NCBI GenBank assembly: GCA_963792415.1
Contig: CAWBVY010000006.1
Location: 608,001 to 672,000, forward strand
From: Candidatus Deferrimicrobiaceae bacterium
Lineage (GTDB): Bacteria > Desulfobacterota > Deferrimicrobia > Deferrimicrobiales > Deferrimicrobiaceae
Direction of reading: 5' to 3'
Length of the DNA stretch: 64,000 nt
Part shown: positions 9,599 to 14,154 of the stretch, piece after piece
How the letters are laid out: each line of letters begins with the position of its first letter
Numbering within the stretch: the stretch's first letter is position 1
Notes under the pieces: generated by a model
What the model saw: only the letters and a program-made list of their open reading frames with translations
Databases searched by the model: none
Told to the model about the DNA's origin: nothing
Made by a program: the position numbers and the translations under genes

Positions 9599-10576
9599 TC
9601 ACGCGGCCCCCCGCACGATGCCCACGCCCAGCGGGTCCGGCGGGTCGGCAGCGATCTTGCGGAACCCCGCCGACCGCATCATCCCGGCGATCTCCTTCGC
9701 CGTGTAGGCCCGTCCGCCCTCGGTCACCGCCACCATGTGGACGGAGAAGAAGGCCGGCCCCGGCGGGGACGTCTTCCCTTCCGCGAGCAGGAATTCCTGT
9801 ACGGCCGCCCGCCCCCCCGGCGCCAGGGCGGCGCGGGCCTTGCGCAGCAGCTTCCGGCAGTCGTCTTCGGGGAAGGCGTGCAGGATCTGGGAGATCCAGA
9901 TGAAGTCGTACGGTCCGCCGAGAGGGTCCTTGAGGAAATCCCCCTCCATCAGCCGGATCCGCGCCTCCACCCCCTTTTCCCGCAGGATCTTCCGGGCGAT
10001 CCGCAGCGTTCCCGGCGTGTCGAAGACGGCGATTTCCGCGCGGGGGTACGCCTGTGCCCACGCGACGGCGTAGGTGCCCGGCCCGCCCCCGAGGTCGAGG
10101 AGGCGGTCTCCGGCGTGGAGAGGAATCTTCCGGGCCACGGCCGCCGCCCGCTTCCGGGCGTTCTCCTCCATTCCCCGGATGAAGTTCTCCTGGTACCCGC
10201 CGTCCGCGCCACCGCCCTTTCCTTGCCCCGCCCGGATCGTGGCGGGAAGGCGACCCCATTCCCCCCACCCGTCGAGGTGGTGCAGGAGGATGGACTCCAT
10301 CGAACGCGGCCCCGGGAGCAGAACCTCCCGCGCCAACCGCGAGATCCCGTACCGGCGGCCGGCCTTGGAAAGCAGGCCGAGGACCACGAGGGCGTCGAGG
10401 AGGATGGAGAGCTTCCCGGGGTCGGCTCCGACCCGGCGCGCCAGCGCGGAGGCATCGCATTCCCCGGACGCAAGCCCCCGGAACACCCCGAGCTTCAGCG
10501 CGGCGAACAGGATCATCGCGCGCTGGTAGCCGTGCCCCAACGCCATCAGGTCGTCCATGTTCCGAACCGGTCTCAT
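9599..10576 (-). CDS. SAM-dependent O-methyltransferase (family 2, dimerisation domain)
   Basis: LLDLGGGPG motif I, GDFL, ISQILH; AGGAGGT RBS before ATG 10576. Confidence 0.88.
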   Translation of the reverse strand: MRPVRNMDDLMALGHGYQRAMILFAALKLGVFRGLASGECDASALARRVGADPGKLSILLDALVVLGLLSKAGRRYGISRLAREVLLPGPRSMESILLHHLDGWGEWGRLPATIRAGQGKGGGADGGYQENFIRGMEENARKRAAAVARKIPLHAGDRLLDLGGGPGTYAVAWAQAYPRAEIAVFDTPGTLRIARKILREKGVEARIRLMEGDFLKDPLGGPYDFIWISQILHAFPEDDCRKLLRKARAALAPGGRAAVQEFLLAEGKTSPPGPAFFSVHMVAVTEGGRAYTAKEIAGMMRSAGFRKIAADPPDPLGVGIVRGAA

Positions 10577-10581
10577 CCGCG

Positions 10582-12063
10582 TCACCTCCTCCGGGCCTTC
10601 TCCATTTTCCGAAGGACCGCGGCTCCCCCCGCCGCGTCCACGACATCGTACCCCGCGGCGCGGATCTTTTCCCGCAGCGCATCCGCCGCCGGGTAGTCGC
10701 CCCCCCGCCTTCGGGACTCCCGTTCCCGCGCCATCGCCGCCACCTCGGCGGGGATCATCGAATCCTCCCCTTCGCCGACTCCGACCGTTTCGTTTTCGGC
10801 GTCGGCTTCGGAGAGCAGGCCCACGCAGAGGACCGCGTCCCACTCCGTGGCGAGCGCCCGGGCAGCCTCCCCTCCGATCCCCGACCGGAGAGCCTTGCGA
10901 ACGACGGCGAGGGCGCGCGGCATGTTCAGGTCGTCCGAGATCGCGTCGCGGAATTCCGTCCTCGATGCCGCCGCGGCGTCCTCTCCCGACGTCGCCTCCA
11001 GCGCCGCCCGACGGAAAGCCGCCCGCAGGCGGGAACGGGCGCGGGCCGCCGCGGCCTGGCCCTCCCAGGTGAAGTTCATCGGCGTCGCGTAGTGAAGGGT
11101 CATGCAGTAATACCGGAAATCGGCGGCGGAGAATCCCTTCCCTCCCCCGGGCGGACCGGTTTCCAGGTCGTCCAGGGTGTACTCGTTCCCCGCCGACTTG
11201 GACATCTTCTTCCCGTCGACCAGCAGGTGGGCCGCGTGCAGCCAATGGGCGGCGAACCGCTTCCCCGTGGCCACCGTCGCGAGGGCCCGGGAATTCTCGT
11301 GGTGCGGGAACCGGAGGTCGATCCCCCCCACGTGCAGGTCGAACTCGGGCCCGAGGTGCCGGATCGCCATCGCCGCGCACTCCGAGTGCCAGCCGGGCCA
11401 TCCCCTCCCCCAGGGGCTGTCCCACTGGAACTCCCGCCCCGGCTCGGCGGGCATCCAGAGGACAAAGTCCTCCGGCCTCCTTTTGTGGCGGTGGCCCCCC
11501 GGGTCCGTCCGTTCCGCGGGCGCCCCCTCCCCGAGGGCGGCCCCCGAGAGGGCCCCGTACCCCGGAACCTTCGACACGTCGAAGTAGAGGTACCCGCCTC
11601 CCCCGTAGACGGCCCCACGCTCCTCGAGCGCGCGCACGAGCGCGATCATCTCCGGGACGTGTTCCGAGGCCCGCGGGTAGGCGTCCGCCGGGAGGAACGC
11701 CATCCTGCGGCAATCCCTGAAGTAGGCCTCCGTGAAAAATGCGGCGATCTCCCGCGCCGACTTCCCGGCCGCGCGGGCGGCGGCGATCACCTTGTCTTCG
11801 CCCTCCTCCAATTGCTCCTGGTGCATGTGCCCCATGTCCGTGATGTTCTGGACCGCGAAGGTGCCGTACCCGAGGAAGCGCAGGGTGCGGACGAGAAGGT
11901 CGGTGAGGAGGTACGTGCGGAGGTTCCCGATGTGGGCGTACCGGTAGACGGTGGGGCCGCAGGTGTAGATGCGCACCCGCTCCGGGTCGGCGGGTGCGAA
12001 GGGCACGCTCCCCCGGGATGCGCTGTCGTGCAGGAAGAGGCGCGTCCCGTCGCGCGTGTGCAC
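10582..12063 (-). CDS. cysS: Cysteine--tRNA ligase
   Basis: YTCGPTVY, HIGN, GWPGWHSEC, FPHHEN, KMSKS. Confidence 0.95.
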   Translation of the reverse strand: MHTRDGTRLFLHDSASRGSVPFAPADPERVRIYTCGPTVYRYAHIGNLRTYLLTDLLVRTLRFLGYGTFAVQNITDMGHMHQEQLEEGEDKVIAAARAAGKSAREIAAFFTEAYFRDCRRMAFLPADAYPRASEHVPEMIALVRALEERGAVYGGGGYLYFDVSKVPGYGALSGAALGEGAPAERTDPGGHRHKRRPEDFVLWMPAEPGREFQWDSPWGRGWPGWHSECAAMAIRHLGPEFDLHVGGIDLRFPHHENSRALATVATGKRFAAHWLHAAHLLVDGKKMSKSAGNEYTLDDLETGPPGGGKGFSAADFRYYCMTLHYATPMNFTWEGQAAAARARSRLRAAFRRAALEATSGEDAAAASRTEFRDAISDDLNMPRALAVVRKALRSGIGGEAARALATEWDAVLCVGLLSEADAENETVGVGEGEDSMIPAEVAAMARERESRRRGGDYPAADALREKIRAAGYDVVDAAGGAAVLRKMEKARRR

Positions 12064-12067
12064 CAAG

Positions 12068-12265
12068 CTACATCTCCTGGTGCGATTCCTTCTCGATCTC
12101 ATCGGAGAGGAGTTTCACGTGCTTCTTCTCCTCTTCCGCGAGATACCGGAACAGCTCCCGTATCTCCGGCTGCGTGGCGATCCGCGCATATTCCGTGTAG
12201 TTCCGGTACGCGACCTTCTCGCGCTCCAGCGCCATCCGGATCACGTCCATCGGGTTTACGGGCAT
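12068..12265 (-). CDS. Half ferritin-like/rubrerythrin-like small protein (65 aa)
   Basis: ALEREK...LAEEEKKH diiron half-motif; GGAGG RBS. Confidence 0.8.
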   Translation of the reverse strand: MPVNPMDVIRMALEREKVAYRNYTEYARIATQPEIRELFRYLAEEEKKHVKLLSDEIEKESHQEM

Positions 12266-12334: not shown

Positions 12335-12718
12335 TCAGCCGGGGTGCTTCTTGTCGTAATCCGCGAGAGCGGACTTGACCGCCTCCTCCGCCATGACCGA
12401 GCAGTGGATCTTCACCGCCGGCAGCCCGTCGAGCGCGTCCGCGACGTGCTGGTTCGAGATCGCCCGCGCCTCTTCGAGGGTCTTCCCCTTGATCATCTCC
12501 GTCAGCATCGAGCTGGAGGCGATCGCCGCCCCGCACCCGAACGTCCGGAACTTCGCGTCGACGACCTTCCCCCCGTCGATCTTGAGGTAGAGGCGCATCA
12601 TGTCGCCGCACGCCGGGTTGCCGACCTCGCCGACGCCGTCGGCGCTCTCGATCTCCCCCACGTTCCGGGGATTCATGAAGTGGTCCATCACCTTTTCGCT
12701 ATAGGGTCCCGCCGCCAT
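12335..12718 (-). CDS. iscU: Fe-S scaffold IscU/NifU N-terminal type
   Basis: [30 protein letters not shown]; all three Cys ligands present. Confidence 0.95.
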
Positions 12719-12725
12719 GATCCGG

Positions 12726-13946
12726 TCATCCTCCTTTGATTTGCTGCTTCTGGTAGTCGAGATACGTCGGGGACATCTCCCTGAGCCGTTGCACGATGCC
12801 GGGCATCGCGTCGAGGGCCAGACGGACCTCGTCCGCGGTGTTCCCCTTCCCGAGACTGAAGGTGATCGACCCGGTGCAGATGTCGCTCGGCACGCCGATC
12901 GCCCGCAGGACGGGGGAAGCCACGAGATCCTCCTCGTCGTGCCCCCGGAGATTGGAACTGCACGCGGATCCGGACGCGGCCATCACCCCTTTCATGTTGA
13001 GGAACAGGAGGAGCGATTCCCCCTCGACATGCTCCACCCAGAAGGAGACGTGCCCGGGAAGACGCTCGGACGGGTGCCCGGTGTAGTGGAGCATCGGGAT
13101 CGCGGCCAGGCCGTCCCACAGGACCTTCCCCAGGCGGGAGAGATGCTCCGCCCACGCGCCCATCTCCCGACCCGCGAGGATCGCCGCCGCGCCCATCCCC
13201 ACCACGGCGGGGACATTTTCGGTCCCGGCCCGGTACCCCATCTCCTGGAACCCGCCGAACGTCCGTGGCGCCACCTTCGTCCCCTCGCGGAGGTAGAGCG
13301 CCCCGGCCCCTTTCGGTCCGTAGAAATTGTGCGCCGAGAGGGTGACGAGATCCGCGGGGATCTCCCGGACGTCCAGGGGGATGTGCCCCGCCGACGCGGT
13401 GGCGTCGACGTGGAACGTGACTCCCGCCTCCTTCGCGATCCGCCCGATCGGACCGACCGGCTCGATCGTTCCGATCTCGGAGTTGGCGTGCATCACCGAG
13501 ACGAGTGCCGTGTCGGCCCGAAGGGCCTTCCGGACGGCGTCGGGGTCGACCACGCCGTTCCGGTCCACGGGAAGAATGGTCACCTCGTACCCCGCGTTGC
13601 GCAGCGGAATCAACGCGTTCATCACGGAGAAGTGCTCGACGTCCGACACGACGACGTGCCGCTTCCGGGCGCCTGTCCCTTCCGCCGCGCCGAGGACGGC
13701 GAGGTTGTTCGACTCGGTGGCTCCCGAGGTGAAGACGATCTCTCCCGCCTTCGCCCCGATCAGCGCCGCGACCTCGCCCCTCGCCTGATCGACCGCCCGC
13801 AGCGCCGCCTGCCCCTGGTCATGGATGTGGGAGGACGGGTTCCCGTACCGATCGAGGAAGTACGGACGCATCGCCTCGAAGACGCGGGGGTCGAGGGGGG
13901 TGGTCGATATATGGTCGAAAAAGGCCTTGGTCATCGGATCGTCCAC
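12726..13946 (-). CDS. iscS: Cysteine desulfurase-like protein (IscS/NifS family) lacking the PLP lysine
   Basis: [39 protein letters not shown] instead of SAHKFYGPKG. Confidence 0.9.
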
Positions 13947-13956
13947 CCTCCCCCGT

Positions 13957-14154
13957 TCACGGCGTGACGTTGAACTGCTCCATCTTTTCCCTGATGAGTT
14001 TCAGGTGGTTGCGCTCCTCGTCGGCAAGAAAGCGGAACATCGACTTCACGGCCGGGTTGGCCGCCTCGGCGGCGCTCTTCTCGTACTCCGCGAAGTTCTC
14101 CGCCTCCAGGCGGAGCGCCATCCGCAATGCCTCTTCCATGGACCAGTTCGCCAT
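13957..14154 (-). CDS. Half ferritin-like/rubrerythrin-like small protein (65 aa)
   Basis: ALRLEAE...LADEERNH; GGAGGAG RBS before ATG 14154. Confidence 0.8.
   Translation of the reverse strand: MANWSMEEALRMALRLEAENFAEYEKSAAEAANPAVKSMFRFLADEERNHLKLIREKMEQFNVTP

Follow-up and report, generated by a model that had tools for sequence, protein, structure and literature searches.

An IscS homologue lacking the catalytic lysine, encoded with IscU between two half-ferritin genes in a Candidatus Deferrimicrobiaceae bacterium

We analyzed a stretch of 64,000 nucleotides (hereafter the window) from a Candidatus Deferrimicrobiaceae bacterium. The window carries on its minus strand, at positions 9599–14175, an operon of six genes that encode, in this order, a small two-helix ferritin-like protein (half-ferritin, hf1), a homologue of the cysteine desulfurases IscS and NifS without the lysine that binds pyridoxal 5'-phosphate (PLP), here denoted IscS*, the iron-sulfur (Fe-S) cluster scaffold IscU, a second half-ferritin (hf2), a paralogue of cysteinyl-tRNA synthetase (CysRS2, gene cysS2) and an O-methyltransferase (Table 1). 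The genes are separated by 10, 7, 69, 1–5 and 5 nucleotides in operon order, and GGAGG ribosome-binding-like motifs lie within the ends of the preceding genes. The corresponding Pfam families are Rubrerythrin (half-length), Aminotran_5, NifU_N, Rubrerythrin, tRNA-synt_1e and Methyltransf_2, and an NCBIfam scan agrees with these assignments. When the operon is divided into 30 bins, 26 are covered by contigs of public runs from two RNA libraries (X15 and X16), which is a hint of its expression, given that RNA libraries can also hold DNA.

The desulfurase-like protein and its conservation

The best solved relative of IscS* is a lysine-bearing desulfurase (PDB code 9wep). In the alignment of both proteins, SAHNF of IscS* stands opposite SAHKM, DATAS opposite DAVQS and ITFSLG opposite VRFSFG. 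In the numbering of Escherichia coli IscS, the positions of Lys206, Gln183 and Arg354 are occupied by Asn, Ala and Thr, respectively (N207, A184 and T362 of IscS*), and the equivalents of His104, Asp180 and Cys328 are retained (H105, D181 and C329). The loop that follows the cysteine motif SGSACSS is seven residues longer than in 9wep and includes an acidic insertion at residues 332–340 (NLRGHDEED). A first-pass annotation of the sequence had described the replaced lysine codon (CAC AAT TTC), DATA in place of DAxQ, the retained cysteine and the acidic insertion, together with three retained cysteines in IscU and the tight packing of the six genes in the order given above, and all of these readings are borne out. 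In E. coli IscS, H104, D180, Q183, K206 and C328 are indispensable, and the K206A and Q183E variants are inactive (PMC9978102). As judged from its residues, IscS* has presumably lost the capacity to cleave the C-S bond of cysteine.

IscS* matches solved IscS and NFS1 structures with E-values of 1e-85 to 1e-106, and it scores under all NCBIfam desulfurase cut-offs (NifS, 421.4 vs 530.75; IscS, 346.5 vs 643.2). An AlphaFold2 model computed from a 31-row alignment has a mean predicted local distance difference test (pLDDT) value of 89.7, and residues 328–341 fall below 50. The low values of this segment fit a mobile cysteine loop that would be lengthened by the insertion.

A protein search of 41 genomes, comprising the window's own and those of 40 relatives, recovered IscS* orthologues at 62–100% identity in 28 genomes, namely 21 of the 25 of the genus and all seven of a sister family. 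The asparagine at the lysine site, the absence of the glutamine and the acidic insertion are found in 28 of 28 orthologues. H105, D181 and the SAH of the SAHN motif are strictly conserved in the same set, and a threonine occupies the Arg354 position in the five orthologues examined for it. A second sweep, which overlapped with the first and took hf2 as its start, was directed at species-representative genomes and yielded 44 loci of this operon type. The asparagine is present in all 39 loci in which its site is covered, and the insertion, in the pattern NL[KR]xxDE[ED][ED]L, in all 38 in which the loop is covered. Close homologues carry the source names Candidatus Deferrimicrobium, Deferrimicrobiaceae or 'Deltaproteobacteria bacterium'. 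Four genomes of the genus have no full IscS* orthologue: one of them (G015) holds an IscS* fragment at a contig edge, two (G003 and G018) hold only cysS2, whole or partial, at or near contig edges, and the fourth is considered below.

The four core genes hf1, iscS*, iscU and hf2 occur together in 36 of the 44 loci of the second sweep, and in the remaining eight the contig ends within the operon. Both families hold the order cbs-nfu-(tlpA)-hf1-iscS*-iscU-hf2. In comparisons with orthologues of the same genus, the median ratio of non-synonymous to synonymous substitution rates (dN/dS) amounts to 0.11 for IscS* (20 orthologues), 0.12 for IscU, 0.33 for hf1, 0.10 for hf2 and 0.18 for cysS2. IscS* is under purifying selection.

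Lysine-less IscS proteins paired with IscU are already known, namely IscS2 of Archaeoglobus fulgidus and IscS1 of Methanosarcina acetivorans. Among the best 150 representatives of clusters formed at 50% identity, the lysine is present in 125, 120 of which also have the glutamine and the arginine, and it is missing in 25, where N, Q, R, T, S, A, L, D, G, P, M or H takes its place. The glutamine and the arginine are both lost in 20 of these 25; cysteine and aspartate are kept in 25 of 25, and His104 in 21. These counts suggest that lysine-less IscS is common and not an Archaeoglobus oddity.

In an unrooted FastTree phylogeny of 157 rows, for which one partial row had been dropped beforehand, IscS* falls in a clade of 25 rows (support 99), 24 of them without the lysine. 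A second, smaller lysine-less clade is also found, and the branches with good support require the state to have changed at least twice. The second clade includes P0167, which among the representatives is the nearest to the A. fulgidus structure 4eb5 (431.6 bits vs 339.6 for IscS*), so that A. fulgidus IscS2 probably belongs to that other clade. Independent loss of the lysine in two clades is, thus, likely, with A. fulgidus placed by this proxy in a tree without a root. Among ten representatives from the lysine-less clade, three have a source name, and in two of them this name contains an organism label, 'bacterium BMS3Abin14 / Proteobacteria bacterium' in one and 'Nitrospirae bacterium' in the other.

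Two further pairs are found in a genome from another family of the same phylum (G040). In the first (locus L051, contig C36, positions 7290–9610), genes for TusA, a lysine-less IscS (SGPALGAPKG), an Rrf2 regulator and IscU follow each other; judging from this order, a dead IscS may receive sulfur by way of a sulfur carrier. The second (L056) consists of an NQ-type lysine-less IscS and an IscU with a Cys/His-rich tail.

The features of the operon and of its surroundings are collected in Table 1. The neighbors common to both families are the CBS-CBS-ACT gene, the Nfu-type carrier gene and the divergent gene of a membrane-anchored redoxin. The methyltransferase gene was found adjacent to the operon only in the family of the window and is absent beside it in four of four sister-family loci examined; it is, therefore, not part of the core. 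Downstream of the operon, at positions 7569–9549 of the plus strand, lie genes for a TerC-like membrane protein and for a tandem universal stress protein; relative G021 has the two genes beside the operon as well.

Table 1. Features of the operon and its surroundings, in window coordinates.
Feature	Position	Strand	Basis or remark
Sigma-70-like promoter match, TTGAAA-18 nt-AATCAT	14186–14215	-	Directly upstream of hf1; consensus match only (3 in the region, 0.5 expected in shuffles)
hf1, 72-residue two-helix ferritin-like protein	13957–14175	-	Pfam Rubrerythrin 29.8 bits, profile positions 1–58 of 137
IscS*, 406 residues, type I IscS/NifS fold without PLP lysine, presumed pseudo-desulfurase	12726–13946	-	Aminotran_5 (PF00266) 259 bits
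Asn207 codon, position of the Schiff-base lysine (E. coli K206)	13326–13328	-	Alignment to 9wep
Cys329 codon	12960–12962	-	Mobile loop of IscS*
Acidic loop insertion, residues 332–340 of IscS*	12927–12953	-	Alignment to 9wep and orthologues
IscU/MisU scaffold, 127 residues	12335–12718	-	NCBIfam NifU_clost 208.5 bits, cut-off 187.9
hf2, 65-residue two-helix ferritin-like protein	12068–12265	-	Pfam Rubrerythrin 37.2 bits
cysS2, full-length CysRS paralogue	10582–12063 (upstream end approximate)	-	TIGR00435 358 bits, cut-off 340
O-methyltransferase with dimerization domain	9599–10576	-	Pfam Methyltransf_2 and Dimerisation
Divergent membrane-anchored thioredoxin-fold protein (AhpC/TSA, Redoxin; CPPC motif)	14353–14922	+	Conserved neighbor
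Nfu-type Fe-S carrier (NifU C-terminal domain)	15204–15422	-	Pfam NifU 108.5 bits; conserved upstream neighbor
CBS-CBS-ACT protein	15516–16154	-	Conserved upstream neighbor

The half-ferritins and the CysRS paralogue

The two half-ferritins are paralogues of about 36% identity. Each has one glutamate on helix 1 and an EExxH motif on helix 2; 13 hf1 sequences share E24, E53, E54 and H57 without exception, as do 12 aligned orthologues of hf2 the residues E16, E45, E46 and H49. Profile searches place the structures of EncB, 7s5k and 7s5c, first for both proteins (E-values against 7s5k of 7.8e-6 for the hf1 profile, built from 13 orthologues, and 2.3e-8 for that of hf2), followed by other diiron proteins, the encapsulated ferritin (EncFtn) of Pyrococcus (5n5e) and symerythrin. 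The hf2 profile also matches the de novo designed 'due ferri' helix-loop-helix diiron peptides. Against the NCBIfam models of EncB and EncFtn, the half-ferritins score 19.5–34.5 bits, with cut-offs of 90–210. Both chains stop right after helix 2, without a recognizable cargo-targeting peptide. By homology, the Glu and the ExxH of each chain make up one half of a diiron site, so that a homo- or heterodimer would complete a ferroxidase-type center.

The genome of the window contains two half-size copies only, hf1 and hf2; five other matches are two-repeat proteins. A scan of species genomes for hf2, which used two peptide patterns only and hence is no census, gave 58 loci, 44 of which are of the present operon type. 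Twelve of the 14 others (L103 and L106 through L117, except L108) encode two-repeat proteins of about 160–260 residues, and in L108 a single match lies within a frame of 184 residues. The last of them (L099, positions 3962–5661, in a bin labelled Acidobacteria) encodes a half-ferritin of 76 residues directly upstream of genes for a lysine-bearing IscS/NifS-like protein and a thioredoxin-like [2Fe-2S] ferredoxin, and constitutes a second, independent link between half-ferritins and desulfurases. A search of the literature found no link between half-ferritins or EncFtn and IscU, which does not prove that none is in print. A docking prediction of hf1 and hf2 on IscS*, computed from the 31-row alignment, scored 0.00 and speaks neither for nor against binding.

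In a subgroup of the family (L082, positions 3428–3946, and similarly L083, L084, L086 and L088), a gene of a two-repeat protein resembling ferritin or rubrerythrin (173 residues in L082) is inserted between iscU and hf2, so that half and fused ferritin-like forms share one operon.

The cysS2 gene starts with TTG or GTG, 1–5 nucleotides past the hf2 stop codon. The genome also encodes a canonical CysRS on contig C1, which shares 37% identity with the paralogue and reaches 459 bits with the Pfam model (280 bits for CysRS2). The TIGR00435 match of CysRS2 covers residues 22–498. Six of six CysRS2 orthologues keep the motifs HIGN, KM[SA]KS (KMSKS), CGPTVY, WH[SI]EC and HHEN and the zinc ligands Cys/Cys/His/Glu, and all of at least 120 matches listed in a homologue search are close relatives with at least 75% identity. 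The orthologues also have an insertion of 11 residues (GHM.QE.LE.GE, residues ~78–88) that is absent from the canonical CysRS of the genome.

The linkage of cysS2 to the operon is found in both families. The gene follows hf2 in 29 of the 33 loci with at least 1500 nucleotides beyond hf2 and is missing in the other four (L065, L069, L093 and L094). It is also missing from the genomes G021 and G008, both of which keep hf1-iscS*-iscU-hf2, and one contig of public run X16 joins position 10589 to 12067, omitting exactly cysS2 (10590–12066). This variable presence indicates an accessory gene. CysRS2 is best described as a putative co-transcribed tRNA ligase outside the core of the module.

Sulfur source, scaffold and function of the locus

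The genome of the window amounts to 2.84 Mb and is 100% complete by marker genes; the inventory given here covers all of it except 72 kb of contig C6. IscU keeps the motifs NPACGD, FGCGAA and KIHCS, with three cysteines, the aspartate and the histidine, as well as LPAVK, and is the sole NifU_N match found. Neither SufB/D, an A-type carrier nor frataxin was found in the inventory. Encapsulin (PF04454) has no match in the genome, a search whose control was positive in three of 14 genomes.

The first-pass annotation had called for a search for a canonical desulfurase elsewhere in the genome, and one was found. This type I enzyme, at C6:32423–33595, has the motifs SGHK, DAVQ, SGSACTS and LRFSLG. 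Its gene lies between a serine acetyltransferase-like gene (cysE) and mnmA, followed by a methylthiotransferase-like gene (C6:31309–36400, L045), and the order cysE-iscS-mnmA recurs in another family of the phylum (G036). The comparison of this gene order with iscS*-iscU indicates that the active desulfurase is tied to tRNA thiolation and the scaffold to the dead paralogue. With a canonical IscS elsewhere in the genome, the sulfur could be donated by a protein, and there is no need to postulate free sulfide. Several genomes of the same genus carry a third IscS/NifS-like gene of 43–46% identity (G002:C1:794649–795743 and G006:C15:69684–70787), which was not found in the genome of the window.

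The best explanation of the locus, which we consider probable, is a minimal (MIS-like) Fe-S assembly module with IscS* as a pseudo-desulfurase. A minimal system similar to that of A. fulgidus is the preferred reading because the catalytic residues are lost, the cysteine is kept, the protein is under purifying selection, a sole scaffold was found, and SufB/D, A-type carrier and frataxin were not. In such a module, IscU would be the scaffold on which clusters are built, with IscS* as its structural partner that does not cleave cysteine. Cys329 of IscS* would either ligate the nascent cluster, as in IscS2-IscU of A. fulgidus, or relay a persulfide. The sulfur would most likely be provided in trans, by the separate active IscS/NifS of the cysE-iscS-mnmA operon or as sulfide. 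The half-ferritins may be free-standing proteins of the EncFtn/EncB type, each with half of a diiron site, whose dimer would serve the assembly complex either in the handling of iron or in protection against O2 and H2O2, and the Nfu protein encoded upstream is a likely carrier of the clusters. The first-pass annotation had likewise proposed a minimal system with a dead IscS, which stands; free sulfide, which it named as a possible source, is too narrow in view of the canonical IscS.

Several points weigh against this interpretation. The pseudo-desulfurase reading of IscS* is drawn from its sequence, and the proposed route of the sulfur is putative. The K206A variant of E. coli IscS still holds some PLP (PMC9978102), and the pocket of IscS* is conserved, so that non-covalent binding of PLP or pyridoxamine phosphate (PMP), with residual or different chemistry, is conceivable. 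Iron handling by hf1 and hf2, including the iron delivery proposed in the first-pass annotation, is putative, as is any contact of these proteins with each other or with IscS*. The half-ferritins are not tied to the lysine-less state in either direction: besides L099, where one accompanies a lysine-bearing protein, a metagenome relative (L059, 2330 nucleotides) with the same asparagine, insertion and IscU has no half-ferritin within 362 nucleotides upstream or 374 nucleotides downstream. The module may not be indispensable, since one genome of the same genus (G006, 97% complete) yielded neither IscS* nor cysS2 with the queries used. Finally, the 72 kb of contig C6 outside the inventory might hold another scaffold.

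With regard to the half-ferritins, it is possible, even if the weight of the evidence lies elsewhere, that they are rubrerythrin-like scavengers of peroxide or oxygen that protect nascent clusters and do not donate iron. Rubrerythrin is the best Pfam family of both proteins, the conserved divergent neighbor is a thiol peroxidase/redoxin-fold gene, and some relatives, such as L082, place a full two-repeat rubrerythrin-like gene within the operon. A scavenging role would also suit the lineage, which is predicted to be facultatively aerobic (PMC9386147). By contrast, hf1 and hf2 lack the rubredoxin domain of true rubrerythrins, and their closest solved relatives are the EncB/EncFtn ferroxidases.

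An assembly driven by sulfide only, in which free sulfide and Fe2+ combine on IscS*-IscU without any protein donor, is rather unlikely. The use of sulfide has been put forward for A. fulgidus (PMC8918507), H2S rescues E. coli delta-iscS only when IscU is present (PMC13015791), and the SMS system runs on sulfide (PMC12192291). These precedents are offset by the active-looking IscS of the same genome and by the predicted physiology of the Deferrimicrobium lineage, described as facultatively anaerobic, oxygen- and iron-respiring and not sulfate-reducing (PMC9386147). Moreover, the loop cysteine, invariant in the 25 lysine-less representatives, suits a ligand or a relay equally.

A more specific version of the iron-handling role is speculative and, in our opinion, doubtful. 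In this scheme, the dead desulfurase would have become, in this bacterial class, the iron-handling half of the scaffold complex: the lengthened acidic loop (DE[ED][ED]) and the half-ferritins, the latter forming a heterodimeric 'natural due-ferri' diiron site, would bind iron, oxidize or reduce it and pass it to IscU, and the sulfur would come from a separate enzyme. If true, the operon would represent a module devoted to the supply of iron to a U-type scaffold and the first cellular role of an EncFtn-type protein outside encapsulin.

It is improbable that IscS* is still an enzyme, holding PLP or PMP non-covalently or through another lysine (K212 in GPKG) and acting as a desulfurase or in other PLP chemistry. 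H105, D181 and a ten-residue stretch of the protein are invariant in 28 of 28 orthologues, and A. fulgidus IscS binds PMP (PMC8918507), in line with the residual PLP of E. coli K206A mentioned above. However, three catalytic or substrate-binding residues are lost together, E. coli IscS is inactivated by K206A or Q183E, as stated above, and canonical enzymes have the GPKG lysine too, yet depend on K206. The scores of IscS* below every desulfurase cut-off point in the same direction.

CysRS enzymes are reported to act as persulfide synthases, and the first-pass annotation had considered CysRS as a source of persulfide. A transfer of sulfur from CysRS2 to IscS*-IscU, as cysteine persulfide or activated cysteine, is highly improbable here. 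In its favor, the start of cysS2 is tightly coupled to the hf2 stop, both families show the linkage to the operon, and the gene comes after hf2 in 29 of the 33 loci that are long enough to include it. CysRS2 is, however, a tRNA ligase of full length that exceeds the TIGR00435 cut-off and keeps the HIGH-type, KMSKS and zinc motifs, and its absence from loci and genomes that retain the core genes, as well as from one public contig, makes an obligatory role as donor unlikely.

Lastly, a sequencing or assembly error at the asparagine codon, which the first-pass annotation had raised, or a decaying pseudogene can be dismissed in view of the asparagine in all 28 orthologues and 39 loci, the dN/dS of 0.11, the intact frame of 406 codons and the confident AlphaFold2 model; slight additional support comes from public-run contigs aligned to the window, which show no difference at 13326–13328 among the 40 of 306 differences listed.

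The route by which iron reaches U-type scaffolds is unsettled, as is the origin of cluster sulfur in anaerobes with a 'dead' IscS. The present system is a compact and strongly conserved operon in which the sole U-type scaffold found and a pseudo-desulfurase are bracketed by two minimal diiron-type proteins. It bears on whether a lysine-less IscS serves as a ligand, a sulfur relay or an iron handler, on whether EncFtn-like half-ferritins function without a shell, and on the uncoupling of sulfur supply and scaffold in bacteria, as in some archaea.

Comparison with known systems

The closest known counterpart is IscS2-IscU of A. fulgidus (4eb5, 4eb7 and 4hvk; D199K variant, 4r5f), in which the lysine is also replaced, the loop cysteine is kept and iscU is adjacent; IscS* matches 4eb5 with an E-value of 3e-100. 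The A. fulgidus protein has an aspartate (D199) at the lysine site, binds PMP, is inactive and completes the coordination of the IscU-bound [2Fe-2S] cluster with its cysteine, the fourth ligand (PMC8918507, PMC13066941 and PMC7585200), in agreement with the account of it given in the first-pass annotation. The two systems differ in the residue at this site, an aspartate in the archaeal protein and an asparagine in the bacterial host described here. In addition, the cysteine loop of IscS* is seven residues longer and acidic, half-ferritins and a CysRS paralogue flank the pair, and IscS* lies in a different lysine-less clade of the FastTree phylogeny from P0167, the proxy of A. fulgidus IscS2.

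The minimal ISC system (MIS; MisS-MisU) of Garcia et al. 2022, compared here by later descriptions of it, likewise has a two-gene core of a desulfurase-like protein and a U-type scaffold without HscAB, Fdx and IscA. In contrast to IscS*, a presumed pseudo-desulfurase, the cysteine desulfurase of MIS is described as active (PMC13066941 and PMC12192291).

The half-ferritins resemble EncFtn and EncB (7s5k, 7s5c and 5n5e), which are also proteins of about 65–100 residues and combine one Glu with one ExxH on two main helices. In EncFtn and EncB, two chains together form the diiron ferroxidase site. In contrast to these proteins, hf1 and hf2 are not known cargo, no encapsulin shell gene was found in the genome, and they constitute two diverged paralogues that bracket iscS*-iscU. 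Around a known kind of dead-IscS/IscU pair, the locus thus adds a shell-less EncFtn-like pair, an acidic cysteine loop and a linked CysRS paralogue as its new elements.

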